A DNA stretch of 64,000 bases from Candidatus Micrarchaeota archaeon. Its GTDB lineage: Archaea; Micrarchaeota; Micrarchaeia; Anstonellales; Bilamarchaeaceae. The DNA lies in the NCBI GenBank assembly GCA_038046805.1, contig JBBSVO010000006.1, forward strand, positions 103,314-167,313, given 5' to 3'. A program made the translations under genes and the position numbers. The notes under the pieces are model-generated. The model was not told the DNA's origin. It ran no database searches and worked only from the letters and a program-made list of their open reading frames with translations. Of this stretch, positions 5,032 to 61,580 are shown piece after piece. Each line of letters starts with the position of its first letter. The first letter of the stretch is position 1.

Positions 5032-8000
5032 ATGTCTTTGGTATTATTCGATTCCTGGTTAATGTTGGTCTGGATTTTCATTACATCGTTTATTCCAGGT
5101 GCGTTGCTGGCCATTTCCATTCTTAAGCGCAGTGAACTCAGGCTATTCGAAAAAATATTGATTGGTTTTGGAATCGGATTCTCTCTTCCTCAACTCATTC
5201 CATACCTGCTTTCTTTTGTAGGAATAAAATTCTCATTCGGAATTGCAATTTTATCTACTCTGGTTTTCTATGCAATTGCAATTGCTCTTTTCCTGAAGGA
5301 AAAGCCATTCGAAGGCTTTAAATTCGAGTTTCCAAAACTTAGTGTCGAAGAGCTGAAGAATATCGAAGCACCTGTATGGAGCTGTATTGTCGCAGCAATT
5401 TTGGTTATAATAATGCTTTCTGCATTCGTGCTTCGTATCTCATCCAGCAGCCCCGTATTTTCTGAGCTTGATCCGTATTATTATACCTATGGGGCTCAGC
5501 AGATAGTCACGCTTGGCGAAATGCCTCTTAATGATGAAACTGCATGGTTTGAGGATGTAAACGGTGATGACATCTCGGAGACAAAGGTGGATCACCGTTC
5601 CCATCCAGTTCTTTTGTATATGGAAGCTGCATGGTACTCGTTCTATACAATGGGTGCGGATGCCGCGCAATATGATAATTATCTTTTGGCATTGGTTGCA
5701 GGTGCATACCCGCCAGTGGCAGCTGCCCTTGCATTCTTTTTCCTTTACCTGTTTTTCGCAGCCAATTACCCGCGTCAATTCGCTCTCATAGGAGCTGCAG
5801 TGGCATCATTTGTTCCGATTCTTGTGCTTAAACTTTCATCTGGAGAGATGGAAGTCCAGCCGTATGCATTTTTTGCGCTCGGGTTTTTCCTTTCAGCATA
5901 TGCCTGGGGGGCAAAGGAGAAAAAATTCGAGAATTCACTTCCATTCGCGCTCGTGGCTGCGCTTGGATACATTGCTCTCGCGTTGGGGAGCTCATCCGCA
6001 GTCGTCGGCGTTTCTGCCATGGCTATATTCATCGGAATCCAGTCAATTTTAATGTTCCTAAAATCCCCGGAAACACGTGAAAACTTACTTGATTTTGCAA
6101 AGTTTAATATCGTTATCATCGGAATTGCATTGTTTCTTGTAGCTACAATAATCCATCCCATTTATAGAAACGGAGTCTTCACCTTTGAATATCTTTACAC
6201 CGGTCCTGCTGTTTATATGATAATGGCTCTTGCACCGACTTTGCTGGCATTGGCCCTGTATTATTTGCGCAATATGATAAAGGACATAGAAACAATGTTC
6301 TATACTCTTGGGGGTATTATCCTCTTCGGTATGCTTGTATTTTTCTTTACTCCGCTCAAAACATTTATCTCGCAGGGTGCAATGAGTGGTCTCACAACAG
6401 CCACATTTGACACTGCACTGAAGCGCACTATCGCAGAACAGGGTGCAAGCGGAGCTCTTTTCCAGGGTCAGCTTGGTTTCATGGCAGCCACCCCCCAGGA
6501 AGTCGCGGAAACATTCCTTCCACCATCTATCTTCGGAGATTTGACAAATCTTGCGACTTCCCTTCTTGGAAAGATTTTCGCACCGCTTTCGGTTTTTGCC
6601 AATACGTTGTTCTCGATTATTTTTGCTGTGGTTAATGCACTTTTCAATGCAGGAATCTCCTATGATACAAAAGAAACGAGTCTCTTGCTGGTTATAATAT
6701 CTCTTTCGTTCCTGGGAATTCTTTATTCTGCTTACCGCTCAATTAAGGGAAGCGGTAGTGAGCTGACGCTGTTCGCACTTTATGCCGCGGTTCTCTTTCC
6801 CCCGGCATTGGTTGGCCTTCTCAAAGCCAAATATACAATTTACGTTGGTTTCTTTTTCGCAGGCGCAATCGGACTTGTGTTTGCAGAGATTTTCATCGCA
6901 GGCTCGGCACTTATAAAAAGATTCTATTCCGAGAAAGAAGAGCTCGTGCGGAAATACATTACGGGTCTGTTCGCCTTTCTGTTCCTTTTCGGGCTTTTGT
7001 TTTCCTATCTTCAGTTTACCCACGAAGATTTTTCTTCTTCAATCCTGTATAACTCCTACAAATTGCGTTTCCAGGACAATCCAGCTGCATTCAAGGAAAA
7101 GCTTACCCAGGTATGTAACCAGCTCCAGCTTTCAGGTGGATACGACGCGGAAATATGTGAGGCTGCAAAAGATCCGGTTGCATACGCATCACGTGGAATA
7201 AACTATCAATTTGACCAGAAACTATGTTCAATTACTATTCCGGATAATCCGTTTACTGCTACGGCCTCCGAGCAGCGCGCAATAAGCTTCAAATGCCAGC
7301 GACTTGCAGTATCCTGGATAAACGTCATGGAATGGATTCGCTTTAACACAGAAAAGGACGCGCGCGTAATTTCCTGGTGGGACTATGGCCACTGGCTTAA
7401 TTTCTTTGGCCAGAGAAACGCAGTTATACGAAATGAGCACATCTCATTGAAAATGATCGGCGAAGTTGCAAAAGGATATCTTCATGATACTCCGGAAGAG
7501 CTTGCTGCGTATATGAAATCCCATGATTCAAAATATGCATTGTTTGACGGAGAATTGGTTCTTTCAGGTGGCACAGTTTTTGGCGGAAAATATGGCGCTT
7601 TGAATTACCTTTCGTGTAACGCGATGGGTAAGACGGATGTATCATATAGTCCCGGTACCTCTCCATGCGAACTTGAACAGCTTTGGGAAACAATTTACGT
7701 ACCAAGGACCGGAGGAGTGCAGCAGTGTTATGTGTCTATATCTTCCGGGAAGGCAGGAATTCTTGCGTACAGATTAAAGGTTACACAAAACCCAGACGGA
7801 GGGCTAAATTCAGGTCTTGAGCCAGCTTATTGCGTGAGCGATGTTGTTCTTGCAGATGGCCAGAAGGTGCTTGCGACTTATGAATTAAACCAAAAAGATG
7901 CTGCCGGAAACCTGAAGCTCAACAAGGCAATCCTTCAGCAGAATTATGAAACACAGGATGGTGTTGCTGTAATGTCTGCGTATTACACAAAGGATAAGAT

Positions 8001-8163
8001 ATGGAAGGAAGGCAACTCCACAGTTGATGGCTATTCTGACAGAAAAGGAAAATTCTATGATTCAAACCTTTACAAGGCGTATTTCCTGGAAGACCTTCCG
8101 GGATTCAAACTGGTTTACAAGACTGCTGGAAATGAGATAAAGATATTCAAGCTGGAGGAATAA
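5032..8163 (+). CDS. aglB: Oligosaccharyltransferase AglB (STT3 family)
   Basis: 1043 aa. About 13 N-terminal hydrophobic segments, ELDPYYYTY in the first loop, catalytic WWDYGHW motif, large soluble C-terminal domain. Confidence 0.9.
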   Translation: MSLVLFDSWLMLVWIFITSFIPGALLAISILKRSELRLFEKILIGFGIGFSLPQLIPYLLSFVGIKFSFGIAILSTLVFYAIAIALFLKEKPFEGFKFEFPKLSVEELKNIEAPVWSCIVAAILVIIMLSAFVLRISSSSPVFSELDPYYYTYGAQQIVTLGEMPLNDETAWFEDVNGDDISETKVDHRSHPVLLYMEAAWYSFYTMGADAAQYDNYLLALVAGAYPPVAAALAFFFLYLFFAANYPRQFALIGAAVASFVPILVLKLSSGEMEVQPYAFFALGFFLSAYAWGAKEKKFENSLPFALVAALGYIALALGSSSAVVGVSAMAIFIGIQSILMFLKSPETRENLLDFAKFNIVIIGIALFLVATIIHPIYRNGVFTFEYLYTGPAVYMIMALAPTLLALALYYLRNMIKDIETMFYTLGGIILFGMLVFFFTPLKTFISQGAMSGLTTATFDTALKRTIAEQGASGALFQGQLGFMAATPQEVAETFLPPSIFGDLTNLATSLLGKIFAPLSVFANTLFSIIFAVVNALFNAGISYDTKETSLLLVIISLSFLGILYSAYRSIKGSGSELTLFALYAAVLFPPALVGLLKAKYTIYVGFFFAGAIGLVFAEIFIAGSALIKRFYSEKEELVRKYITGLFAFLFLFGLLFSYLQFTHEDFSSSILYNSYKLRFQDNPAAFKEKLTQVCNQLQLSGGYDAEICEAAKDPVAYASRGINYQFDQKLCSITIPDNPFTATASEQRAISFKCQRLAVSWINVMEWIRFNTEKDARVISWWDYGHWLNFFGQRNAVIRNEHISLKMIGEVAKGYLHDTPEELAAYMKSHDSKYALFDGELVLSGGTVFGGKYGALNYLSCNAMGKTDVSYSPGTSPCELEQLWETIYVPRTGGVQQCYVSISSGKAGILAYRLKVTQNPDGGLNSGLEPAYCVSDVVLADGQKVLATYELNQKDAAGNLKLNKAILQQNYETQDGVAVMSAYYTKDKIWKEGNSTVDGYSDRKGKFYDSNLYKAYFLEDLPGFKLVYKTAGNEIKIFKLEE

Positions 8164-27195: not shown

Positions 27196-27301
27196 TCCTC
27201 ACTGGTGTTTTCATTTTTTGTTTTTTGTTTTTTAAAATCCGAGACGGGGTATTGAAAACCAACTTTTATATTATCTATTATACCTTAGAATATATTATAA
27301 C

Positions 27302-27518
27302 GGGCCCGTGGCGCAGCCTGGATAGCGTAGCAAGGCTTATTAAGTAAGTTTGTTAATAAGCTCTAGAAGCCTTCTAAGCTGACGGTCATGAGTTCAAGCA
27401 CAAGCCTTTTGGATTTCAGAAGCATTAAGACAAACGGCTAGTGTTTACCCAAAATCATGGAGAAGCATAATCAACGCGAAACTTGTGGTGTAAGAAAGAA
27501 CATATCTCATCGGGCCCG
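27302..27518 (+). tRNA. Putative tRNA-Arg (TCT), 217 nt, with two introns (anticodon stem about 36 nt, T-loop 106 nt)
   Basis: GGGCCCG-TG-GCGC-AGCCTGGATA-GCGT-A-GC[27332-27367]AGC-CTTCTAA-GCTGA-CGGTC-ATGAG-TTCAA[27398-27503]AT-CTCAT-CGGGCCC-G. Acceptor, D-arm and T-stem are perfect. Removing both inserts gives 75 nt. The anticodon-arm assignment is the weakest part. Confidence 0.55.
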
Positions 27519-27576
27519 AAGTTTATTATCCTGCAAAATTAGAAACAATAATGCGAAACACAATTTAGGTGAGTCT

Positions 27577-27828
27577 ATGCAAAACAACAAAGTAGGTGAG
27601 GCCATCTCTCTTTTGGATATGCTCTCAAATGAATCATCAATTCCAAAGAATATACGAAAAGCACTTTCAGATGCCAAACAAAGGCTTGAATCCAATGAAG
27701 AACTCAATGTTAAGGTCAGTGCTGCAGTTTATATTATAGATTCTATAAGCGATGATATCAACATGCCAGCTCATGCACGAACCCAGATATGGGGGGTTGT
27801 GAGCATGCTGGAATCCATGAAAGCATGA
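27577..27828 (+). CDS. UPF0147 family small protein
   Basis: Start moved to the ATG at 27577 (MQNNKVGEAISLLDML...IPKNIRKAL...DDINMPAHARTQIWGVVSMLE), which matches the conserved archaeal UPF0147 pattern. The upstream part of the track ORF overlaps the tRNA. Confidence 0.75.
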   Translation: MQNNKVGEAISLLDMLSNESSIPKNIRKALSDAKQRLESNEELNVKVSAAVYIIDSISDDINMPAHARTQIWGVVSMLESMKA

Positions 27829-33536: not shown

Positions 33537-34100
33537 CTATTCTAGTGCAACTTCGACGATAGTCTCATATTTGGGTCCTTTTCCAGTGTCTCTTCCAAGA
33601 ATGCTTTGCTTCAGGAAAAATTGGGTTACTTCGAACTCCCCAAAGTCTGCGTTTTTGTATTTTGCCAGAAAATCCAGCAAATTTATCCTTCTTTTTACGC
33701 GAGCAATCGTCAGATGCGGCGTGTTCTCTTCTCTGGGAAATCCGAGTTCGCCTATTCCCTCATTTATTCTATCAGAGAGTTCTTTCAACGAGTTATCCTT
33801 GCTTTTGCAGCCTATCCACACCACGCGAATATAACTCTCGTTCGGAAAAACTCCGACTCCTCTAAGTTTGACTTTTATTCTTTTTGTTTTTGCCGCAATT
33901 TTGAGAAGTGCATTTTCTATCTTTGCAATGTCATCATATCCTATGTCCCCCAGGAATTTCATGGTTATATGCAGATTTTCATCCTCAGTTGGTCTTATAC
34001 TGTCTCCTGCCTTTTCCAATTCTTTTTTTACAGCACGTAACCTATGGTGAATCTCCTTTGGAATATCAATCGCAACAAATCCCCGGAATGATTTTTTCAT
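33537..34100 (-). CDS. thpR: RNA 2',3'-cyclic phosphodiesterase (2H family, ThpR/LigT)
   Basis: 187 aa. Two H-x-T/S motifs (NLHITMKFLG and TPHLTIARV). Confidence 0.85.
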   Translation of the reverse strand: MKKSFRGFVAIDIPKEIHHRLRAVKKELEKAGDSIRPTEDENLHITMKFLGDIGYDDIAKIENALLKIAAKTKRIKVKLRGVGVFPNESYIRVVWIGCKSKDNSLKELSDRINEGIGELGFPREENTPHLTIARVKRRINLLDFLAKYKNADFGEFEVTQFFLKQSILGRDTGKGPKYETIVEVALE

Positions 34101-35756: not shown

Positions 35757-38700
35757 ATGCGTGATTTTGAAACAACTGAAAAGATCGCAGTGCCGGAAAA
35801 GCTCATAGACCAGATCATAGGTCAAGATAAGGCAGTTGAAATAATAAAAAAAGCTGCAAAACAAAAGCGCAATGTCCTTCTCATAGGTCCGCCAGGTACA
35901 GGCAAAAGCATGCTCGCACAGGCAATGGCAGAGCTAATGCCTGCTGAAGAACTGGAGGATGTTCTTACTTATCCAAATCCAAATAATGAGAATCAGCCAC
36001 TTATCAAGGCAGTTAAAACTCATCCTTCACCAGATGAAATAGAAAAGAATAAGGAATACAAAATGCTGTTTCATCCAAAAGAGCTTTTGGATATGAAAAG
36101 AGGAACTACCGGGAAACCCATGCCTTTGATTGGTATGGGAAGAAGAATATTTCGCATGAGCCGAGCCATGGATGATCGCATGGCAGGTGGCGGTTCTAAC
36201 CTCTTCATGTTGATTCTGATTGGTATAATTCTTCTTGCAATAATTTTCTATCTTGATCTTGCAGAAAACATAAAATGGCTTCTTCTGGCGGGAATTTTCG
36301 GTATTGCATTTTTATATATCATTTCAAGTGCTACCCAGGGCTTAAGCCGCAGGTTTATGCCGACAGAAAATGCAAACCCGAAATTAATCATTGATAACAG
36401 CGAGAAATTTACTGCACCATTTATTGATGCTACGGGTGCAAAAGCCGGCGCGCTTCTCGGAGATTGTAAACACGATCCGTTGCAATGTTTTTTCCCATCA
36501 TCTACGACCTATATCGTTAAGGACGAGAAAATCCTTACAGTTGCTTTGAATGAACTTGTTGATAACTTGCTAGCAAAATACCCAGAATTAATTCAAAGAG
36601 ATGAAAAATATGAAGGGTTGATTCTCCCAAAAAACGAGGAGATTTACACTATTGGTTCATTGAACGCAAACACAATACCTGTACGTATTTTATGTGTAAA
36701 TAGAAGACTGCGCACAGGGAAGGTATCCATTGTTAAGACTGGTATCACTCGTTTATTAGTAACCCCGGAACACAAAATATTTTCCGGTGGAAATCTCATA
36801 GAAGCCGAAAAAATTAGGCCAAGTTCACAATTTTCTTTATATTTTAATCCAGTGATAACGAAGGATGACGTCATAAGGACATTTTCAGAACAAGACCAGG
36901 CAGATGCAGTTAACTATTATAAATTCGTAAAAATAAAAGAGTCAAATCCTCCTTTTGGATACAAGAAAATTGCCAAAATAATGGGGATAAAATCAGGACA
37001 GACCCGGTGGTGGAACAACAAAAAATGTAAACCAAAGGCAGTTCAGACAATAGAACGCCTTGAACATCTTGGTTTGCTTCCCTTCGGTGTTAATAATGCG
37101 GTAGCACCAATAGTTGCTAGAGTTTTAGGCACTACCTTTGGGGATGGAGGTATCTTTTCAACTCTCAATGGAATATTTTTATCTTCTTCTGAAGAAGATT
37201 CTCTTAATCAATACGCACAGGATTTAATCTCCATCTTCGGAACGTCTATAGAACATAATTTTGAGCGCCGAATCAGCGGTGTCAATAATACCGGAAGAGT
37301 TGTATGGAACACGAATCGCGATGTCGTTCGTTTCTTCATAGCTCTCGGAGCCCAGGTTGGAAGAAAGAACAAAAACGTTCGAATACCTTCGTGGATTAAT
37401 CTGAGCTCGGAAGTGCAGCAGGAATTTTTCGGAGCTTTTTTAGGGAATGAACTATGTAGTCCAAGATTCTCCAATGACCAGAACAAGATACAGTGTTTTT
37501 GTTTCGGACTTGCCGGAAGTCGTTCATTGGAACAAAATCGAAAAGAGATTTTATCTACTCTTGCCCATTATCTGAATTCTTATGGAATCCAAACCTCCCC
37601 AAACATAAATGAAAACGAATTCAAAAAAGGGAGATATATATGGAGACTGGGAATATCAACAGAAGTTGAGAACTTAATCCGATTTTACCAGCTTATTCCT
37701 ATTCGTTATTCAAATGCAAAGCTATTGAGAGTTCAGGATGCAATAGAACAGGTTTTGGAACGAAAAAAATCAAAATACAAAGACTTCCTACGCATCGGAA
37801 AGAGTGAAAAATATGTTTTGGCCACTCTTCGCGTTTCGGGAAACACACTTCAAAAGATTATTTCGAATGAAAAGTTGGTTTTTGATTCTTCATCTGTGCA
37901 ATTTTCCGGTTATGTCTATAACATAACAACCGAGTCTGGCAATCTTTTCGCAAATGGAATCCTTGCAAGCAATTCGGGAGGTCTCGGCACCCCCCCTCAT
38001 CTCCGTGTCGAATCAGGCGCAGTCCACCGTGCGAACAAAGGGGTTCTTTTCATTGACGAAATCGCATCTCTTAAATGGCACTGGCAGCAGGAACTTCTGA
38101 CTGCAATGCAGGAAAAGAAATATCCAATAACCGGGCAGAGTGAAATGAGCTCCGGAGCTCTTGTTAAAACAGAATCCGTTCCTAGCGATTTTGTTCTAGT
38201 TGCTGCAGGAAATTTACCTGATCTTCAACAGATTCATCCAGCGCTTCGTTCGCGTATAAGAGGTGCCGGCTATGAAGTTTATGTTGAAGACAGCATGGAC
38301 GATACTCCTGAAAATGAAGACGGGCTTATTCAGTTTATAGCTCAGGAGGTCAAGAAAGACGGGAGGATCCCCCACTTTAATCGGGATGCAGTTATTGAAA
38401 TCATTGAGGAAGCGCGGCGCATGTCTGGTCGAAAAAAGAAATTCACCCTGAATCTAAGAGAGCTCGGTGGACTTGTACGTGCCACCGGAGATATTGCGCG
38501 TGAGCGGGGCTCCCGGTTTGTCGAACGCGAACACGTGGCTCTTGCAAAAAAGGTTTTCAGTTCTATAGAAGGCCAGCTCGGAAAGAAATTCGTAGAGCGA
38601 AAAAAGGATTATGAAACATTCATGCATGAGGGTTCTGCAGTTGGAAGGGTAAATGGCCTTGCAGTGCTCGGAGAATCCTCTTCTGGTCTTGTTCTTCCAA

Positions 38701-39254
38701 TTGTTGCTGAAGTTACGCCTGCTTCATCAAAAAGCGAGGGAAAGGTTTTTGCAACAGGAAAGCTTGGAACAATTGCCAAAGAAGCAGTTGAAAACGTTTC
38801 GGCTATCGTAAAAAAGACAATGGGAACGGATATATCAAAAAGCGATATTCACATACAATTCCTTCAAACATACGAGGGCGTGGAAGGAGACAGTGCTTCC
38901 ATTTCCATCGCAGTTTCGGTAATCTCCGCGATGACAGGAATTCCAGTAAAGCAGGATTATGCTCTTACTGGTTCTGTCGACGTACGTGGGGATGTTCTTC
39001 CTGTTGGTGGTGTCACGGCAAAGACCGAGGCCGCAATAGAAACAGGCCTCAAATATGTGCTGGTTCCGAAAATGAATTTTGAGGATATCATTCTTTCGCC
39101 GGATAAAAAAGGAAAAGCAGAAATAATTCCGGTTGCGAATATAATGGAGGTTCTCAGGCATGTTCTTGTTGATTGTCCAGAGAAGGTGAAACTGCTTGAA
39201 TCGATGAAAGCTGGTGGAAACGTCAAATCAAAACAAGGAAAGAAGAGAAGATGA
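35757..39254 (+). CDS. lonB: Archaeal membrane-anchored Lon protease (LonB), interrupted by an intein
   Basis: 1165 aa. Walker A GPPGTGKS, two TM helices, AAA+ Walker B VLFIDEI after the insert, and a C-terminal protease domain with Ser in GDSASISIAVS. The exteins sum to 669 aa, a normal LonB size. Confidence 0.9.
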   Translation: MRDFETTEKIAVPEKLIDQIIGQDKAVEIIKKAAKQKRNVLLIGPPGTGKSMLAQAMAELMPAEELEDVLTYPNPNNENQPLIKAVKTHPSPDEIEKNKEYKMLFHPKELLDMKRGTTGKPMPLIGMGRRIFRMSRAMDDRMAGGGSNLFMLILIGIILLAIIFYLDLAENIKWLLLAGIFGIAFLYIISSATQGLSRRFMPTENANPKLIIDNSEKFTAPFIDATGAKAGALLGDCKHDPLQCFFPSSTTYIVKDEKILTVALNELVDNLLAKYPELIQRDEKYEGLILPKNEEIYTIGSLNANTIPVRILCVNRRLRTGKVSIVKTGITRLLVTPEHKIFSGGNLIEAEKIRPSSQFSLYFNPVITKDDVIRTFSEQDQADAVNYYKFVKIKESNPPFGYKKIAKIMGIKSGQTRWWNNKKCKPKAVQTIERLEHLGLLPFGVNNAVAPIVARVLGTTFGDGGIFSTLNGIFLSSSEEDSLNQYAQDLISIFGTSIEHNFERRISGVNNTGRVVWNTNRDVVRFFIALGAQVGRKNKNVRIPSWINLSSEVQQEFFGAFLGNELCSPRFSNDQNKIQCFCFGLAGSRSLEQNRKEILSTLAHYLNSYGIQTSPNINENEFKKGRYIWRLGISTEVENLIRFYQLIPIRYSNAKLLRVQDAIEQVLERKKSKYKDFLRIGKSEKYVLATLRVSGNTLQKIISNEKLVFDSSSVQFSGYVYNITTESGNLFANGILASNSGGLGTPPHLRVESGAVHRANKGVLFIDEIASLKWHWQQELLTAMQEKKYPITGQSEMSSGALVKTESVPSDFVLVAAGNLPDLQQIHPALRSRIRGAGYEVYVEDSMDDTPENEDGLIQFIAQEVKKDGRIPHFNRDAVIEIIEEARRMSGRKKKFTLNLRELGGLVRATGDIARERGSRFVEREHVALAKKVFSSIEGQLGKKFVERKKDYETFMHEGSAVGRVNGLAVLGESSSGLVLPIVAEVTPASSKSEGKVFATGKLGTIAKEAVENVSAIVKKTMGTDISKSDIHIQFLQTYEGVEGDSASISIAVSVISAMTGIPVKQDYALTGSVDVRGDVLPVGGVTAKTEAAIETGLKYVLVPKMNFEDIILSPDKKGKAEIIPVANIMEVLRHVLVDCPEKVKLLESMKAGGNVKSKQGKKRR
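36486..37973 (+). mobile_element. Intein (496 aa) with LAGLIDADG homing-endonuclease domain in LonB
   Basis: The insert begins with Cys (DPLQ|CFFPSS) and ends ...NGILASN|S, the canonical C1 ... HN/SN+Ser junctions. Internal LAGLIDADG-like blocks VLGTTFGDGG and FFGAFLGNE. Confidence 0.85.
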
Positions 39255-44527: not shown

Positions 44528-44599
44528 GTTATTCCATTCTGATAATCGTCAGATAGCTTTAAAAATGGTTTTAGACACAGTTTATGGTTGGGTGTGATT

Positions 44600-47500
44600 A
44601 TGCCAAATCCGAAACAGATCGTATTGCACGTTAATTCCGGGAAATCTTCGCTTGTGGATATGCATGAATGGATGAGGGCCACTATAAAGAAAGATACAAC
44701 TGATGAGCAATTGAATATACCGGCGACCAAACCAGACGTTTATGATTCGGTTTTTATTGGTTTTATCTATAAGAATCCAAGGGATAATGACGAGATTTGG
44801 GCAAGAGTTTATACTCCGATTTATGATAAGAAGAATGCGTTCACAGGTAATTTTCTTGTAACAGAAGCCCGGCTTTCTGATTTGATTGGTGACAAAAAGA
44901 AAATAGATGCAATAGAAGGGGCCATATTGAATCTTCCCAGTCGTTCAATTGGCGAATTTCGCATGTTGAAGGAGCTGGTATCTCCTCAGCATTCTCTTAA
45001 TGATGACGGGTATGATTCTGGTACGGGCTATAGATTTAGTTACGGGAAAAGTGTGGGACGTGACAAAATAGTTTTCCCAATGGGCCGTGAGCTTAAGCAC
45101 GTTAACGTAGCTGCACAAGAGCCTGTGGATGTCACCGTATCCCGAGCCGGTGTAGCCGCCCCAATCTCTCGAATAGCATTCGATGGCGAGATGTGGACTG
45201 CAAAAAAAGCAGTTAAGGAAATAATTGAAGCTCCCGCAACCGATTTGAGCAAAGTAAATCCAAATGACCAGATTGGGTTTGGCAAGTGGCTGAATGGGCA
45301 GATGAAAGAAAAATTCAGTAATTTTGATTTTTCCAAATTATCCAAGGATGACCAAAAGGAATTGGTGAAGCATGTTTCGAATCTTATTTCGAATAGACTG
45401 CTTGCCAGTCTTGCAAAAGCAGAACCGCCCGCTGCAACAGAAAGACCGCCAGCCACAACCGCGCAGGCGCCTGCTGAAAAACCCAAGAGGGAATTATCCG
45501 AGCGTGAACTTGATAATTTGCTTGATGAATTGGAAGCCCCGGATGCGCTCAAAAAAGCTATTCCAAAACCGAGCGGTTCACCACGAATTGCAGAAAATGT
45601 TGAACTTGCCAGACGCGAGAGCGCTGCCAAAGAGGCGCGTCTCTCCAAAGTAAGCGAACCGGTGCAAGCCCCAGTGTTTCCAACCGAACAGGAATTAAAC
45701 GCAGATATTCGCCAATTTGTCAATTCTTTAGACAGTACAAATCTGGCAACATGGGGTGAAGCAAGCGATGTTGTTGACCATATTCTGGAACAGCGGAAAA
45801 TCACAGTTCCATTGAATTTCGCGCTCAGGGAAGGACTTGAATTATATGCATCGAACGAAATCACGGCTCACACGCAGGACGTGTCACCAGCGGTTATGTA
45901 TGAGTTAGAAGACCTCAAAAACGAAGTAACGAAAGTCGTGAATCGGGTGAAGTTTGACAAGTCCGGCCAGGGTGCAAGCCCGTCCAAAGTAATTAACGAA
46001 GTTTTGCGTCAAAAGAATCTAGGAAAAGATTTTGTTTCCCAGAACGATATGAAAGAACTTTCCAGTTTTGCCGCAAGCGAGCTTGTGCGCAGGCTTAATG
46101 AGGTTGTTGTCACTACAACGAATCCAGAGAGGCTGAAGCCGGAAGTTATGAACTTGATTAAAGGAGACTTACAAATGTTTATTTCAACAGGTAACTATTC
46201 CGAGATTTCTGGTGCTACTCCTGATTCGGTTGTAAGGCTCATTCTCACAAGAAGCATGCGACATCTGGTTAAAACGACTGGTGGCATTACCGGAGCGGAT
46301 ATAAAAGAACTCGAAACATATGTGCAACCCCAGTTAATCGCACGCAGAGCTGAACTCGTTAAGCTGGCCGCAGAAGCACAGTCCCGTTCTCGCGCAGAGA
46401 TCGCTCCAGCTGTCTCAACATCAAGAACGGAATCGAGTCTTCCTCCAACTATTCCCCCATCGGAAGTTTCCGCTCAAAGAGAGGCAGAACGACAACGACA
46501 ATTAGCAGCCGAAGCAGAGAGGAGAAGAACACTGGCACCACCAACTCCCGCACCAGCCGCACCAATAGTTGCGCCAGCAGTTTCCACCCCCATCGTTTCA
46601 TTATCCCGCAAAGCAGTTTCAGTTCAGGATGTCGCCAAATCATTCACCGGAAGCTATACTCCCGGGCAATTGATTGAATTGAACCGCACTTTTGCAGAAG
46701 CGCCGGAAGCGCGGAAATACACATCTGCATATCACGTCGTCTATCAAAAACAAAGCGATGACGGCAGCATGCTTCTTTTCGTAAAGGCGCACGGAGGCGC
46801 ACGGATTTACAGGTATGATATTCCTGCAGGGTTTTTTGATCCATCTTCGGTAACGATTTCGAGTGCGGTTCTACAAAATCTAAAATCTGCAGGTGCATCT
46901 AATTCAGAGGCAGATGCGATTGCGATGATAATGACGAAGTCATTTGTTTCCAACATAGTTACTGGGGAAGTCCAGTCTTTTGTTTATGCCAATGGCGGCA
47001 TGAGCAACACGAATTATCTTTCACTTGGCAAGTCACGCGATGAATATCGTATTCCCAAAGGAACAAGATTCTCAAGGCTTATTACGCCACTTGATTTTGT
47101 AAAGGACTTTTCAGCAGAAGATAAACGAAAATACCTTGCAGAGCCCACAGAGAATCCAGACGATTATGAAGTTCTTGGTACAATGATTGCCGGAACCCGC
47201 GCCATGATTTTTAAAGAGCATAAATCCGCGATGGAATCTGCAATCTCCTCGTACTTAGAAGGTAATCCAGAACCGTTTGCAAAATTGCTTCTTTCCTATG
47301 CAATGGAAGGTCAGGCCACTTCAGCAGTACATATACAGGTTCTTTCGGTTTACTTAATGTACAGGCTTCAGCAGGAAGGACTGATGGATTTCACCGGAAT
47401 CTACGCGAAATTAAACGGAAAGACGATAAAGCCGTTAAAGGATGCGGAAGATATTCTGAAAAGAGCAAGAACCAAATCCGGCGCGCAGGAAGTTTTCGCA

Positions 47501-48433
47501 ATTCTTCAGGAATGGGAGAACAGAAAAGTAATGGGGCTTGGAAAAGAAGGTGCAGTTTCAAAGCTCACGGAAATCCTGAATTACGCAAATGAAAATTTCA
47601 TGGCAGAAAAGCCGCCGAAAGGGTACAGCAGGAGCGGAAAGATTTACCCATACCTAAAGAGCCGTGCAACAAAGAAGGTTGCATCGGAAGTTAATCCGGT
47701 TGATGGAAAGCTCGGGCCGATTACGCTTATGGCATGGATGTTCGTGATGACCGAACCATCTCTGGCAAGGGGGCCGGATAAGGACCCAAGAAAGAATCGC
47801 TTGGAAGCCGAACCTCTCCATGTCGCAGATGTAGCGGTTTTTAAGGAAAAGAGAGATGTAACTACCAAACGAGGGGAAGGATCAACTTATGAATTGAATC
47901 TCCATTTCTTCTCTAAAGGAGGCGATAAGCTTACCGAAGCAGCATATCTCAAATCCCAGGGCCTTACTCGCGATCAAGCACTTTTTATGTATTATGGGCT
48001 GATGCTTGCACGTGATACGATCCCAGGTACAGATGGAAATATGGGTTGGTTCATCATTAATCCGAATAGGAAGGAAAGGCAGGATAAAAATATATTCTAC
48101 ACTGGCTTTTTGGATATGGACCGTGGCAAAATATTCCCAGTAACCTATGAGAAGGATACAGCAATTATTGGGGATAGCCCTATACTTGAAAATGTTCAAT
48201 TTATGACACACATTGATAAAGACAAAAAAGAGATCCACCCCTGGGTTGTTCCTGAAAAACAACCTTGGGAAATGGATCCAGCAGTTGTAAGTAGGTTGTA
48301 TTCTGTCCAGTCAAATAACAACACATTTTTCCTTCCCAATTACGGAACACCATCAAGACCAGATAAAAACGGAAATATTTACCCGGGTTCGTTTATTATT
48401 GGGAATGGTACGATAAAAGATTTGACGAAGTGA
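44600..48433 (+). CDS. Giant ORFan protein (1277 aa from the ATG), no signal peptide
   Basis: Uninterrupted ORF with internal ~65-75-aa helical repeats and Pro/Ala-rich spacers (PPAATERPPATTAQAPAEKP; APPTPAPAAPIVAPAV). No catalytic motif recognised. Confidence 0.7.
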   Translation: MPNPKQIVLHVNSGKSSLVDMHEWMRATIKKDTTDEQLNIPATKPDVYDSVFIGFIYKNPRDNDEIWARVYTPIYDKKNAFTGNFLVTEARLSDLIGDKKKIDAIEGAILNLPSRSIGEFRMLKELVSPQHSLNDDGYDSGTGYRFSYGKSVGRDKIVFPMGRELKHVNVAAQEPVDVTVSRAGVAAPISRIAFDGEMWTAKKAVKEIIEAPATDLSKVNPNDQIGFGKWLNGQMKEKFSNFDFSKLSKDDQKELVKHVSNLISNRLLASLAKAEPPAATERPPATTAQAPAEKPKRELSERELDNLLDELEAPDALKKAIPKPSGSPRIAENVELARRESAAKEARLSKVSEPVQAPVFPTEQELNADIRQFVNSLDSTNLATWGEASDVVDHILEQRKITVPLNFALREGLELYASNEITAHTQDVSPAVMYELEDLKNEVTKVVNRVKFDKSGQGASPSKVINEVLRQKNLGKDFVSQNDMKELSSFAASELVRRLNEVVVTTTNPERLKPEVMNLIKGDLQMFISTGNYSEISGATPDSVVRLILTRSMRHLVKTTGGITGADIKELETYVQPQLIARRAELVKLAAEAQSRSRAEIAPAVSTSRTESSLPPTIPPSEVSAQREAERQRQLAAEAERRRTLAPPTPAPAAPIVAPAVSTPIVSLSRKAVSVQDVAKSFTGSYTPGQLIELNRTFAEAPEARKYTSAYHVVYQKQSDDGSMLLFVKAHGGARIYRYDIPAGFFDPSSVTISSAVLQNLKSAGASNSEADAIAMIMTKSFVSNIVTGEVQSFVYANGGMSNTNYLSLGKSRDEYRIPKGTRFSRLITPLDFVKDFSAEDKRKYLAEPTENPDDYEVLGTMIAGTRAMIFKEHKSAMESAISSYLEGNPEPFAKLLLSYAMEGQATSAVHIQVLSVYLMYRLQQEGLMDFTGIYAKLNGKTIKPLKDAEDILKRARTKSGAQEVFAILQEWENRKVMGLGKEGAVSKLTEILNYANENFMAEKPPKGYSRSGKIYPYLKSRATKKVASEVNPVDGKLGPITLMAWMFVMTEPSLARGPDKDPRKNRLEAEPLHVADVAVFKEKRDVTTKRGEGSTYELNLHFFSKGGDKLTEAAYLKSQGLTRDQALFMYYGLMLARDTIPGTDGNMGWFIINPNRKERQDKNIFYTGFLDMDRGKIFPVTYEKDTAIIGDSPILENVQFMTHIDKDKKEIHPWVVPEKQPWEMDPAVVSRLYSVQSNNNTFFLPNYGTPSRPDKNGNIYPGSFIIGNGTIKDLTK

Positions 48434-50183: not shown

Positions 50184-53100
50184 ATGGTTTCATATGTCGC
50201 TGGAACGTGGCGCTTCGTTCTACCTCTACTGCTACTTATTGCCTTTTTTCCCCTCAGCTCTTTTGGCGTAGATAAGACTTATTCCTCTTATACTTTCTAT
50301 AATTCTCCAGGAGTAACTGATGTTTATCTGAAAACAGATATAGGTATTTCCAACAATGTCGAGGTTACGTCATTAGGCCTTCAGCTCCCATCTGGAGAAT
50401 ATTGTCCTGGGAAATTTTATGTTTCACCAAAGGTAAATATAAACTGGCCGAAAGACAAATCCAATTTTTATGTGGTTTCATATTATCCTCTTGGTAATAC
50501 CGAATCCTGTTGGCCGCTTACTGGTTCGAGTAGTAAAACCCAATGTCCTTATCTCCCAATTTCGTACAGTACTATAAACGAGAATAAAAATGCGGAATTT
50601 TTAAGCGATTCATCTTACGCGAGTGTTTTGTCTCTTGGTTTTTATCTTTCTTCATCATCAAATGTTTTGACGGATTTCTATGACCAAAAAATTGCAAAAT
50701 ACTTTGTTGAGGCAACAACAGGAAAGATATATGAAAACAAAAAAGGCGGAGTCAATCTCTTCTGCAAAGGCGCGTCATCAATTGTTGTTGATGGCGCCAC
50801 GATGACGACACAGTCTTTGGCCAGTACTTCATCGCAGAGCATTGCACTTGGAGAAGGGGCTCACTCTGTCTCATCCAAATTATCTGGTCTTGAATGTGTC
50901 GGTGCAGTAAAAAAGTATCCGGATGATGATAAATTTTTCAGAGTATATCTGTTTAAAGAGAATCCATGGGTTCCGAGTTTGAGTGACACCACTGCGTCAC
51001 TGTCGGTAACTGTTCTAAATACGCAATTTTCCGCAACAGCTACAAAATCCTATCCAACTACTTCAAATATTCTTATTTCGCCAGGGGGGACAACCAATGT
51101 ATATATCCTGGTTAAAAATACGGGCGATGTTCCAGTAAAGGCATCAAGCATAATGCTTGGTGCGTCGAGCCCTGGTTTTACTATTGGTCCAGGACCTGTC
51201 AGTGCGGTAAATCCGTTCAATCCATTCGGTTCTCCAATCCAGAACAGCTATAACAAGGAAATCGCCCCGGGTGAGGAGGGAACAGTTATCCTAACAATTA
51301 CTGCGCCAAATACGATTCCAGATAATGCAAAAGTTAATTTCAAACTCAAGGTTTCTGCAACTGAAAAAACCTGCGTTGGAAAAGATACCTACGAAACAGT
51401 TGACTTGTCATTTGACTATCAGATAACCCCGTTGAATCAGGCGGATAACTGCAAATTCGATCCTACTTCAAAAACAATAAACAAGGATGCAACGGATTAT
51501 TTCACTCTTTCCTGTACTGATCAAAACAATGCTCCCATTGCATGTCCGAAAGACATTTCCGTGACTGCTGATCCAAGCGATATTGTAAGCCTTTTATTAT
51601 ACGAGCCGACAACCGGAACAACCATTGTAAAAGCTCTTGATTCCGGAAGCGGTGCCGTTGTCGCAATAAATTCATTCCCGTTCTTCATCTGTTATGCTAA
51701 TGTTACTGTGCCCAAGGTTGATGTTCCTCCGCCACAGAAAAAGAAAGACTGCGTGCTTGCACCATCCACCCAAACAATAAACGGAACAGGAAATTCCGCG
51801 GAATACACTCTCACGTGTCTTCAGGATGCAGTTGCAGTTCCATGTCCGAACAGCAACGAAATTACAGTCACTACAAGCAGTCTTGTTTCTTTTGACAGCT
51901 ATTCCAAATTAGGTTCTGGTCAGGCAAAAATACAGGTTACTTCCAAATCAGAAGGCAGCGGTTCAATCGCAGTAAGCGACAAAAAAGGAATGGTTTGCAG
52001 TGCAGATGTTGTTGTTGAAAAGCCAACTCAGCCTCCTCCACCCGTAGAGCCTGTAAAGACCTGTGCAATTTCTCCTTCACCCCAGACAGTTGAGGGCCTT
52101 GGAAAAAACATGGAATTCACAATGCTTTGTTATTCTGACGGAAATCCGACTTTGTGCGAATCTACTGCATCTGCAGCAGGCCTTACGGTTACAAATGGCG
52201 TTGGAACAATCAGTAGCTATTCTGTTAAAGGAAAATCATCCACACTTATCAATGTCACAAGTACTGCGCTTGGAAATGGAAAGCTTCAGGTTTCAACAAG
52301 CAAATCAGGGCCCCCATTGTGCGAGGCAGACATTACTGTAAAATCTCCGCCAACACCTCCGCCAAATCAAACTCCTACAGTTTATTCCTGCGATGTTACT
52401 CCGGATAATCCTCTTGTAACTCAGAACAAACCACAGACATTTTTAGTAGAATGCTTCAACAACAGCAAATCAATTCCATGCACTGATGTTTCCTGGGGAG
52501 CCGTACCTGCTCTTGAAGCAAAGGCAAATCTGTTACTCAATAATATGGCTATTTTCACTATTTCCGGGCAACCAGGAACTCTTGGTGCCGTATCCGCGCT
52601 TCCATTTAATCAGGCAACAATCTGTTCCACAAACGTGGTTATAGCCGCAGAGGTGCCACCTCCACCGGCAAACGAGACGCCGGTAACGCCACAAATTGAT
52701 TCCTGTGCAATTTCCCCGGATTCCCAATCAATAGAAGGCCAAGGCGTTTATACATCCTATTCGCTTGTGTGTTATGCAAACAAAACAGTTACTACCTGTC
52801 CTGAATTTTCCGGCATGGGTATTTCCATTCCTAATGGTGTTGGTTCTGTAGAGAAATATGAGGTATCAAAGCAAATTGCAACTATTGATGTCCTCACCCA
52901 ATCATTTGGTATAGGAACCCTTTCGGTTTCATCAAAGAATAAATCTTTTTCATGCAGTGCCGCACTTGAAGTTACTGAACCAGCACAACCAACAGTGCGG
53001 AACACGTGTGCAATCGCTCCGTCCGGGGTTACCGTTACCCAAAACGCGTCCACTAGTTTCTCTGTTGCGTGCATGACAAATTTTGCACCTGCGCCCTGTT

Positions 53101-54128
53101 TTAATATAACCTGGACCGCAAGGAGCATCGATGCCAAACTAATCTCCTTTGGTCACCAATTTGCGATATTTAATTTCACTTCTCCACCGGGAACTTTGGG
53201 CGAGGTTGATGTAAATTGGAACAATGATGCACTATGTACTGCCGCGGTTCTCGTGGATACGCCCGTGCTTCCACCAGGAAACTTAACCAACCTCACAAAC
53301 CTAACCAACCTAACTAATTTGACTAATTTAACCAACTTGACAAATCTAACCAACCTTACGAACTTAACCAACCTCACAAACCTAACCAATCTGACTAATC
53401 TAACCAACTTGACAAACCTAACCAATCTTACCAATATTACTAACCTGACTAACATAACCAACGGAACCACGGGGTTCAGGGAATTTTGCAGGATTACCGC
53501 ACCGTTTTTGGTTGTGCCTAACGTCAGTTTTGACATGGATTTGAATTGTTACGATGAAATCGGGCTTCCGGTATCATGCGACAATGTTGCATGGGGCACA
53601 AGCCTTCCAGGCGGTCTTTATGTGTGGGATGCACAGGAGGACCGCGGTGCGTTAATGACTGTAAATTACGGGGGCAACATTACCTTTTCAGTATCCGCGG
53701 ATGTAAACAAGTTGTTTCCGTATTCATGTTCCGCGAACATTACTCTTGTCGGTTCAGGTGCAAACATAACCAATCTGACAAATCTTACAAACGCAACCGA
53801 ATTCTTTGAAGCATGCGCCTTGAAGCCATATTTCTGGCTTGCAAAACCAGGTGAGCAACGCGATTTTGACCTGTCATGTATTTTGGATATTAAGAATGGA
53901 ACAACTGAGGACTGCTCTAATGTAAACTGGGATGTTTCAACAACTGATTTCAGCATTACCGAGCACGCCATCAATGAGTCAAAGGCGATAGTTACATCCG
54001 CTCCGCTCGTTGGAGGAAACTACACGACAATCCTTTCAGTTACCGCAACCGGAACAAAAACAGGGAAGAAATACAAATGCACTGCGGACCTGATGCTTGG
54101 CGGAATGTTCTGCCATGATTACGTTTAA
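50184..54128 (+). CDS. Secreted giant surface protein: signal peptide, CARDB-like region, eight 4-Cys Ig-like modules, poly-sequon linker
   Basis: 1314 aa. N-terminal WRFVLPLLLLIAFFPLSSFG signal. Eight ~90-aa modules each with four conserved Cys, joined by Pro-rich linkers. Many N-x-S/T sites. Confidence 0.8.
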   Translation: MVSYVAGTWRFVLPLLLLIAFFPLSSFGVDKTYSSYTFYNSPGVTDVYLKTDIGISNNVEVTSLGLQLPSGEYCPGKFYVSPKVNINWPKDKSNFYVVSYYPLGNTESCWPLTGSSSKTQCPYLPISYSTINENKNAEFLSDSSYASVLSLGFYLSSSSNVLTDFYDQKIAKYFVEATTGKIYENKKGGVNLFCKGASSIVVDGATMTTQSLASTSSQSIALGEGAHSVSSKLSGLECVGAVKKYPDDDKFFRVYLFKENPWVPSLSDTTASLSVTVLNTQFSATATKSYPTTSNILISPGGTTNVYILVKNTGDVPVKASSIMLGASSPGFTIGPGPVSAVNPFNPFGSPIQNSYNKEIAPGEEGTVILTITAPNTIPDNAKVNFKLKVSATEKTCVGKDTYETVDLSFDYQITPLNQADNCKFDPTSKTINKDATDYFTLSCTDQNNAPIACPKDISVTADPSDIVSLLLYEPTTGTTIVKALDSGSGAVVAINSFPFFICYANVTVPKVDVPPPQKKKDCVLAPSTQTINGTGNSAEYTLTCLQDAVAVPCPNSNEITVTTSSLVSFDSYSKLGSGQAKIQVTSKSEGSGSIAVSDKKGMVCSADVVVEKPTQPPPPVEPVKTCAISPSPQTVEGLGKNMEFTMLCYSDGNPTLCESTASAAGLTVTNGVGTISSYSVKGKSSTLINVTSTALGNGKLQVSTSKSGPPLCEADITVKSPPTPPPNQTPTVYSCDVTPDNPLVTQNKPQTFLVECFNNSKSIPCTDVSWGAVPALEAKANLLLNNMAIFTISGQPGTLGAVSALPFNQATICSTNVVIAAEVPPPPANETPVTPQIDSCAISPDSQSIEGQGVYTSYSLVCYANKTVTTCPEFSGMGISIPNGVGSVEKYEVSKQIATIDVLTQSFGIGTLSVSSKNKSFSCSAALEVTEPAQPTVRNTCAIAPSGVTVTQNASTSFSVACMTNFAPAPCFNITWTARSIDAKLISFGHQFAIFNFTSPPGTLGEVDVNWNNDALCTAAVLVDTPVLPPGNLTNLTNLTNLTNLTNLTNLTNLTNLTNLTNLTNLTNLTNLTNLTNLTNLTNITNLTNITNGTTGFREFCRITAPFLVVPNVSFDMDLNCYDEIGLPVSCDNVAWGTSLPGGLYVWDAQEDRGALMTVNYGGNITFSVSADVNKLFPYSCSANITLVGSGANITNLTNLTNATEFFEACALKPYFWLAKPGEQRDFDLSCILDIKNGTTEDCSNVNWDVSTTDFSITEHAINESKAIVTSAPLVGGNYTTILSVTATGTKTGKKYKCTADLMLGGMFCHDYV
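53280..53468 (+). repeat. 21 tandem 9-bp codon-triplet repeats encoding N-X-T sequons
   Basis: (AAY YTN ACN) x17, then NIT, NLT, NIT, NGT. Sequons 1-3 and 10-12 are nucleotide-identical, indicating an 81-bp higher-order duplication. A 4-sequon run lies at 53763-53798. Confidence 0.95.
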
Positions 54129-61264: not shown

Positions 61265-61388
61265 TGCAGGGATAGCAAAGCCTGGTCAAATGCGCAGGAC
61301 TTAAGGAGCCTTTTGACTTCTAAGTAGGTCTGTGGTTTCGGAAATCCTGTCGCTTAGTGCGTTCGCAAGTTCAAATCTTGCTCCCTGC
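61265..61388 (+). tRNA. tRNA-Leu (TAA) with canonical 37/38 intron (38 nt)
   Basis: GCAGGGA-TA-GCA...TGC-G-CAGGA-CTTAAG[61305-61342]A-TCCTG, variable arm, then GCAAG-TTCAAAT-CTTGC-TCCCTGC-A. Anticodon at 61301-61303. Mature length 86 nt. Confidence 0.85.
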
Positions 61389-61580
61389 ATTTTGTTTTCA
61401 TCTGAGTTCTTCGGGTTTTTCGTGAGGAAATACCTCATGAACTACCTTCCGTCAGTGAAGGTTCTGACGTAAGATCTATTTAAGCCCTGGCCTGAGGCGA
61501 GTTAGACGATTGCCTAATTAATAGTAGTCCAACGAGTCATGGTGCTTATTTTTAAATCCTTTGAACACTAATATACTTCA

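Follow-up and report, generated by a model that had tools for sequence, protein, structure and literature searches.

Can a 217-nt segment of archaeal DNA to which the standard detectors are blind be a working tRNA gene? The question is raised by positions 27302-27518 (+) of a 64,000-nt stretch of contig JBBSVO010000006.1 (Candidatus Micrarchaeota archaeon, assembly GCA_038046805.1), which is referred to below as the window. An earlier reading of the bare letters (the original prediction) had proposed here an arginine tRNA gene with one intron in the T-loop and a second insert in the anticodon stem, and every sequence element that it named is present at the place it gave. We conclude that the segment is very probably a functional chromosomal tRNA-Arg(UCU) gene made of three colinear exons and two protein-spliced archaeal introns, with a spliced tRNA of 75 nt (Table 1). 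This conclusion is supported directly by the anatomy of the exons and introns, the cloverleaf that the joined exons form, a conservation that is selective for the exons, and splice motifs in agreement with the published rule.

The joined exons form a predicted tRNA-Arg(UCU)

The perfect pairing of GGGCCCG with CGGGCCC, proposed as the acceptor stem, is there and is followed by the discriminator base G73. Taken alone it proves nothing, because hundreds of 7-nt complements at about this distance (~200 nt) would arise in 64 kb by chance. Its combination with the single D-arm match, the unique best anticodon join and the cloverleaf of the joined 75-mer, by contrast, is not due to chance. The tRNA D-arm consensus pattern occurs once in the window, both strands considered, at 27309, and the intact D-arm (GCGC/GCGT) and T-stem (ATGAG/CTCAT) were both read where they had been placed. 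For the anticodon arm, we enumerated all single deletions that leave a 17-nt arm between A26 and the T stem. The unique best arm is GCAGC/CTTCTAA/GCTGA, with four Watson-Crick pairs, U33 and A37; no alternative scores better, and the loop CTTCTAA with anticodon TCT, which had been put forward as the only suitable one, stands. The suggested joining of GC (27330-27331) to AGC (27368-27370) across an intron of about 36 nt could be refined to an intron at position 29/30 spanning 27333-27368.

Spliced in silico, the 75-mer is called tRNA-Arg(tct) by ARAGORN and has a canonical cloverleaf, with stems of 7 (acceptor), 4 (D), 5 (anticodon) and 5 (T) base pairs, anticodon and T-loops of 7 nt and a variable loop of 5 nt. 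Twenty of the 21 pairs are standard, the exception being G27.A43. The conserved tRNA bases are all present after joining (U8, A14, G18 G19, A21, U33, the purine at 37, G53, T54 T55 C56, A58 and C61), and A58 and C61 flank the 106-nt intron on opposite sides. The arginine identity set of bacterial and yeast arginyl-tRNA synthetases, which may not be the set of this lineage, consists of A20, C35 and a purine at 73; in the window gene A20 is 27322, C35 is 27374 and G73 is 27518. AGA accounts for 31% of the arginine codons in the long open reading frames (ORFs) of the window, more than any of the other five.

For 16 aligned tRNA-Arg sequences, each spliced or intron-free, the covariation score is 0.321, against 0.116 after shuffling (0/500 shuffles reach 0.321). 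In this alignment 96.7% of cells are paired and 9 pairs are altered on both sides; when the partners are slid, 28-45% are paired. Covariation is seen in the T-stem pairs 49-65 and 52-62, whose partners lie on opposite sides of the 106-nt intron. The covariance-model scores that we cite are those of relatives serving as proxies for the spliced 75-mer: L140, identical to it at 72/75 positions, scores 46.9 bits with the Rfam tRNA model, and the intron-free tRNA-Arg(UCU) gene L143, identical at 66/75, scores 67.1 bits (68.1 bits for L132, likewise intron-free).

Splice motifs at the two introns

In the bulge-helix-bulge (BHB) rule, each strand of a 4-bp central helix is followed on its 3' side by a 3-nt bulge, and the cut falls after the second bulge base. 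As a check, the rule reproduces the canonical 37/38 case. At this locus it yields the exact mature sequence for both introns.

The central helix of the T-loop intron (intron 2) is formed by GTTC (27392-27395) and GAAC (27498-27501), with 4/4 pairs, and its bulges are A A^G (27396-27398) on the 5' side and A T^A (27502-27504) on the 3' side. The outer helix has 2 bp (27390-27391 with 27505-27506) and no inner helix adjoins the central helix, an arrangement that is hBH/BHL-like. Removal of the intron leaves the mature T-loop TTCAAAT. This register, at position 58/59, is the only one with a central helix and sets the predicted 106-nt intron at 27398-27503; position 59/60 was considered and dropped, since that register lacks the helix. 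The sister genome described below (L001) retains GTTC, GAAC and the two bulges, despite divergence elsewhere in the intron. The helix between CACAAG (27399-27404) and CTTGTG (27482-27487), noticed earlier near the ends of the intron, does exist. On the 3' strand, however, 10 nt separate it from the central helix, and the sister genome has not conserved it; for these two reasons we place it outside the splice motif.

In intron 1, the central helix is GTAG/CTAG with 3/4 pairs: TAG (27328-27330) pairs with CTA (27363-27365) and G27327.G27366 is mismatched. The bulges are C A^A (27331-27333) on the 5' side and A A^G (27367-27369) on the 3' side. An inner helix of 10 bp (27334-27343 with 27353-27362) is present and there is no outer helix (HBh').

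Comparison with a sister genome

Loci of a sister lineage (L001-L004, including GCA_013331535.1) have the same gene order as the window and a small subunit of DNA polymerase D (DP1) that is 93% identical in protein sequence. The orthologous tRNA-Arg(UCU) gene of the sister genome lies at L001:3307-3552. All 75 exon bases are identical (100%) between the two genes, compared to 72-82% of third codon positions in three neighbouring genes and 75-85% of the flanking intergenic DNA. Identity is only 60% in the T-loop intron, whose alignment has 20 gap columns and whose length is 90 nt in the sister genome against 106 nt in the window. Intron 1 behaves differently from intron 2, being identical at 35/36 positions (27333-27368 against L001:3383-3418) with its sole change in the hairpin loop; its conservation is close to that of the exons, neutral-like sites being 72-85% identical. 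Its 10-bp hairpin and splice motif may be the cause of this conservation, alone or together with other constraints.

The sister gene has a third intron of 45 nt in the D-loop at 17/17a (L001:3324-3368, found also in L002-L004), which the window gene lacks. Its motif has a central helix GCAG/CTGC with 4/4 pairs and an inner helix of 6 bp, and its removal gives exactly the D-loop of the window. This D-loop intron is present in one and absent from the other of two genomes that are ~90% identical in DNA.

Intron positions in wider relatives

When a genome collection was scanned with the anticodon-arm pattern AGCCTTCTAAGCTGNNGGTC, the matches listed were mostly bacterial tRNA-Arg genes, with one useful archaeal locus (L009). 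A metagenome search with a 5'-exon pattern gave 52 loci of archaeal tRNA-Arg genes, among which genes with D-loop introns are under-sampled because the pattern demanded an intact 5' exon. The arm GCAGC-CTTCTAA-GCTGA is uninterrupted in L009, L132, L143 and others, in L132 and L143 with G27.A43 included. L140 has a canonical intron only, and its T-arm ATGAG-TTCAAAT-CTCGT is uninterrupted. The 75-nt tRNA that the original prediction expected from its exons is thus supported by in-silico splicing, by the uninterrupted arms of orthologues, by exon identity with the sister gene and by the BHB cuts.

A more distant syntenic orthologue (L180, 2021-2183; DP1 58% identical) stands in the same neighbourhood of VTT, UPF0147, DP1 and DP2 (the large subunit of DNA polymerase D). 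Its three introns, of 36, 20 and 32 nt, lie at 17/17a, 37/38 and 56/57 respectively, and its spliced product matches that of the window at 73/75 aligned positions. Because the distant L180 also has a 17/17a intron, albeit of unrelated sequence, loss of this intron in the window lineage is the more economical reading. Most relatives have their T-loop introns at 59/60, in at least 12 distinct genes, with lengths of 13-77 nt and near-strict motifs (central helix TTCA/TGGA or TTCA/TGAA, with the T stem as outer helix). The 106 nt of the window is the longest T-loop intron sampled (13-106 nt); lengths of 13-37 nt are typical, and outside the sister lineage the second longest has 77 nt. A tRNA-Arg(CCU) gene (L173) also has an intron at 29/30, with a 4/4 central helix, and base 25 and its intron partner differ jointly between this gene and the window's.

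Across related Micrarchaeota, the one orthologous gene has introns at five positions (17/17a, 29/30, 37/38, 56/57 and 58/59), and further relatives have them at 59/60. Intron turnover between close relatives is clear. As a novel aspect it is weaker than a functional excised intron would be, yet it is the more likely of the two. The five positions, together with the presence or absence of the D-loop intron, make this gene a natural system for intron gain, loss and sliding. Intron transposition was rejected, no second copy of any intron being present in the window or in the 180 fetched loci.

Two metagenome tRNA-Arg(UCU) genes, L147 (257 nt) and L142 (199 nt), have an insert that consists of tandem units of ~58 nt, each ending in an exon copy AGCTGACGGT. 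A third locus (L153) has one such ~58-nt unit ending in AGCTGACGGT. The total insert of L147, at 182 nt, exceeds the published maximum of 129 nt. The inserts of L147 and L142 look like intron growth via partial tandem gene duplication.

Objections and alternative explanations

Several observations weigh against a functional gene. The unspliced locus is not seen by ARAGORN, even in the run that allows introns, and has no Rfam tRNA match at the gathering score or at E<=10; such silence of a covariance model is expected given non-canonical introns. G27.A43 (27330, 27382) is the uppermost pair of the anticodon stem and is mismatched. This mismatch is, however, common to 11 of the 16 aligned relatives, the carriers being the UCU and most CCU genes, intron-free ones included, and the remaining 5/16 pair G.U at 27-43 (three CCG/GCG/UCG genes and the CCU genes L125 and L157); it is thus a feature of the lineage rather than a defect of the window gene. 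Neither intron has the strict hBHBh' form, intron 1 having a G.G mismatch in its central helix and no outer helix and intron 2 no adjacent inner helix, and we therefore assign both to the relaxed class. Minimum-free-energy folds of the precursor favour partly different pairings, so that the splice motifs are to be seen as compatible conformations and not as predicted ground states. A splicing endonuclease and an RtcB ligase were not found by Pfam among 49 of the 51 window ORFs of >=110 aa, those left aside being the DP1 and DP2 genes of DNA polymerase D.

The blindness of the standard detectors and the relaxed form of both splice motifs would also suit a decaying pseudogene, in which two insertions have left no functional tRNA. 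We regard this as most improbable. The 75/75 exon identity with the sister gene, where neutral-like sites are 72-85% identical, would arise with a chance of ~4e-10 at 75% identity per site. The boundaries of the inserts obey the BHB rule and restore both the T-loop TTCAAAT and an anticodon arm that is intact in relatives, the syntenic orthologue L180 likewise has three spliceable introns, and AGA is the most used arginine codon. When only the T-loop intron is removed, ARAGORN -i reports a different molecule, a class-II-like tRNA-Ser(UGA) with another anticodon arm, in which AAGG/CCTT forms the anticodon stem, a 27-nt intron lies within the anticodon and CTAAGCTGACGG serves as a long variable arm. 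The 7-bp helix AAGGCTT (27332-27338)/AAGCCTT (27367-27373) behind this fold is real and occurs in the local minimum-free-energy fold. The fold is scarcely credible even so, and was dropped on its structure and on the comparison with orthologues: its anticodon stem has 4 bp, two bases separate the D and anticodon stems, the variable arm is poor and contains a G.G pair, the anticodon spans the splice junction, and the orthologues show GCAGC-CTTCTAA-GCTGA uninterrupted. The window, moreover, already has a normal tRNA-Ser(UGA) at 61265-61390. Self-splicing group I or II introns were rejected on size (36 and 106 nt, where a ribozyme has >= ~200 nt) and on the lack of any ribozyme match in Rfam at E<=10 in 27200-27620, and a split or permuted tRNA gene on the three exons being colinear inside 217 nt.

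A further proposal is compatible with a spliced tRNA-Arg(UCU) gene and concerns the length of intron 2. The original prediction called this intron unusually long for an archaeal tRNA; it is so relative to the archaeal medians of 12-25 nt and as the longest sampled here, but it falls within the published range of 11-129 nt (PMC4090602). The excised intron might have a function of its own, for instance as a stable circular RNA, and its exceptional length (106 nt, 90 nt in the sister) be kept for that reason; we consider this quite unlikely. That intron 2 additionally carries a functional small RNA (a box C/D guide or a stable circular RNA) we consider very unlikely. Both lengths are far above the 13-37 nt typical of the site in relatives, and the two introns, diverged elsewhere, share an identical block of 11 nt, TCATGGAGAAG, although this is only a hint. 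There is precedent in long tRNA-Trp introns that nest a C/D RNA (PMC4090602). Against a box C/D guide, the sense strand of the window intron has no C-like box and no CUGA, and that of L001 likewise lacks CUGA, with a single weak C-like match. More generally, no Rfam family matches intron 2 at E<=10, its 60% identity with many indels is at or below that of neutral-like sites, and it has no conserved ORF, the ATG-initiated frame from 27457 hitting a stop in L001. This frame (27457-27828), which starts in intron 2 and runs in frame into UPF0147, was accordingly rejected as a coding ORF; the real gene starts at 27577. An origin of intron 2 by internal duplication of the exon 2/intron junction, suggested by the resemblance of TCATGGAGAAGC to TCATGAGTTCAAGC, was also rejected, as 10-14% of shuffles score as well. 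No further copy of intron 2 occurs within the window.

Proposed maturation pathway

We propose that transcription from the TATA-like element ~30 nt upstream would give a precursor of ~217 nt, extended by short leader and trailer sequences. The precursor would form a relaxed BHB motif at the exon-intron boundaries, and the endonuclease would cut after the second base of each bulge, at 27332^27333 and 27368^27369 for intron 1 and at 27397^27398 and 27503^27504 for intron 2. The three exons would then be joined by an RNA ligase, the ends trimmed and CCA added, to give a 75-nt product that reads AGA. The addition of CCA is proposed because the gene does not encode it, G73 being followed by AAG. 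Transcription, cleavage and ligation are steps that we infer from the locus, as is the type of endonuclease. HBh', hBH and BHL motifs are reported to be cut by (alpha-beta)2 and epsilon2 enzymes only (PMC5829648), and an epsilon2-type endonuclease, as in ARMAN-2 where it cuts relaxed motifs, would be the obvious candidate for the cutter.

Relation to known tRNA introns

As many as three introns can interrupt an archaeal tRNA gene, with no apparent rule to their positions (PMC8450103, PMC4033280). The closest published system is that of ARMAN-2 (Candidatus Micrarchaeum acidiphilum), which belongs to the same phylum-level lineage as the window (Fujishima et al. 2011, PMC3239211; Hirata et al. 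2012, PMC3488258; PMC12397907). Both have T-loop introns, several introns per gene and relaxed hBH/BHL-type motifs, and in both, genes of this kind were found only through manual searches. In ARMAN-2, the pre-tRNA-Cys has an hBH intron at 59/60 and two T-loop introns interrupt the pre-tRNA-Pro, at 53/54 and 59/60 (PMC3239211); the window gene, by contrast, is a tRNA-Arg(UCU) with introns at 58/59 and 29/30. The epsilon2 endonuclease of ARMAN-2 cuts relaxed motifs (PMC3239211; structures PMC3488258, PMC12397907), and epsilon2 enzymes are found in ARMAN-2 and Mancarchaeum (PMC3239211, PMC5829648).

Going by the accounts of Sugahara et al. 2008 in PMC4033280, PMC4090602 and PMC8450103, the Thermoproteales (Crenarchaeota) resemble the window in that a gene may have as many as three introns at seemingly arbitrary positions, that the BHB motifs are relaxed and that introns are gained and lost fast between close relatives. 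They belong to another superphylum and have (alpha-beta)2 enzymes, the enzyme of the window presumably being different. In contrast to the Thermoproteales, there is no evidence of intron transposition here, because no second intron copy exists in the window or the fetched loci. Introns of comparable length (~65-105 nt) occur in the tRNA-Trp(CCA) genes of Euryarchaeota (PMC4090602); those lie at the canonical 37/38 and have C/D boxes, whereas the long intron of the window lies in the T-loop and is without them.

T-loop introns and multiple introns per gene are therefore already known in this lineage; what is specific to this gene is the Arg(UCU) identity, the pair of positions 29/30 and 58/59, the long T-loop intron and the turnover. 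Surveys of the Thermoproteales reportedly list many such positions. The mechanism of archaeal tRNA introns, as it is known, is unchanged by this gene. There is, however, a consequence for annotation. ARAGORN and the Rfam tRNA model both miss the gene, so automatic annotation would lack the tRNA for AGA, the top arginine codon of the window. The incomplete tRNA sets of new DPANN genomes have been attributed to undetected disrupted genes (PMC5829648), and tRNAscan-SE 2.0 derives its intron models from Crenarchaeota, Euryarchaeota and Thaumarchaeota (PMC8450103). Intron-aware models for DPANN could be trained on curated cases such as this locus and its relatives. The set also offers natural substrates for gauging the breadth of Micrarchaeota endonucleases (HBh' at 29/30 and 17/17a, hBH at 58/59, near-strict at 59/60), and the D-loop intron, present or absent at ~90% DNA identity, is a recent gain or loss event to study.

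Anatomy of the locus and its surroundings

Table 1. Coordinates of the tRNA-Arg(UCU) gene, its parts and its putative control elements in the window
Feature	Coordinates	Strand	Remarks
TATA-like promoter element (predicted)	27264..27273	+	TTTTATATTA; 29-38 nt 5' of the mature end; read from the sequence
Exon 1	27302..27332	+	tRNA positions 1-29; includes U8 and G27 C28 A29; identical in sister genome
Acceptor, 5' strand	27302..27308	+	GGGCCCG
D arm	27311..27328	+	loop AGCCTGGATA; holds A14, G18 G19, A20, A21
D stem, 5' strand	27311..27314	+	GCGC
D stem, 3' strand	27325..27328	+	GCGT
A26	27329	+	
Intron 1	27333..27368	+	36 nt; position 29/30, anticodon stem; relaxed HBh' motif
Exon 2	27369..27397	+	tRNA positions 30-58; begins G30 C31
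Anticodon loop	27371..27377	+	CTTCTAA
Anticodon	27373..27375	+	TCT
Anticodon stem, 3' strand	27378..27382	+	GCTGA
Variable loop	27383..27387	+	CGGTC
T stem, 5' strand	27388..27392	+	ATGAG
T-loop, first part	27393..27397	+	TTCAA
Intron 2	27398..27503	+	106 nt; position 58/59, T-loop; relaxed hBH motif
Exon 3	27504..27518	+	tRNA positions 59-73; A59 T60 complete the T-loop TTCAAAT
T stem, 3' strand	27506..27510	+	CTCAT
Acceptor, 3' strand	27511..27517	+	CGGGCCC
Discriminator G73	27518	+	
T-rich trailer	27522..27530	+	TTTATTATC; conserved in L001

What is generally known of archaeal promoters suggests that the TATA-like element is the promoter of the tRNA gene; comparable T-rich TATA-like elements (TTTTTATTTA/G) stand 25-35 nt upstream of the L001 and L180 orthologues. 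The trailer is a possible transcription stop. The only Rfam match in or around the introns is to CRISPR-DR44, in the AT-rich putative promoter region (27263-27290 (+); E=0.56, 21.4 bits where the gathering score is 35); we treat it as chance because a repeat array is absent.

Downstream of the tRNA gene lie UPF0147 and then the genes for the small and large subunits of DNA polymerase D. By Pfam, the window is chromosomal, with FtsZ, Cdc6/Orc1, an Asp/Asn-tRNA synthetase, HMG-CoA reductase, LonB and a beta-CASP RNase. The best matches of DP1 are all from Candidatus Micrarchaeota/Micrarchaeia (DPANN), and the window sequence matches part of a 197.6-kb groundwater metagenome contig (ENA ERZ1292622, Hain_H52_02um) identically.

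Other observations in the window

The tRNA-Ser(UGA) gene at 61265-61390 (+) is the only tRNA of the window seen by ARAGORN or Rfam. It has a canonical intron of 38 nt and a long variable arm, scores 45.9 bits with the Rfam tRNA model, and is missed by ARAGORN at default settings and found by ARAGORN -i. Three very large ORFs, at 5032-8163 (+), 44588-48433 (+) and 50184-54128 (+), encode 1043, 1281 and 1314 aa and have no Pfam match at E<=1e-5. Just downstream of the DNA polymerase D genes, a gene at 33537-34100 (-) encodes a member of the LigT-like 2H phosphoesterase/2'-5' RNA ligase family; the LigT-like protein acts on RNA ends and is not the known archaeal tRNA-splicing ligase. The LonB protease gene at 35757-39254 (+), of 1165 aa, has its AAA domain split (Pfam, residues 18-70 and ~750-833) by an insert of ~680 aa with weak sub-threshold matches to Intein_splicing and LAGLIDADG_3. 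This insert is probably an intein with a homing endonuclease.

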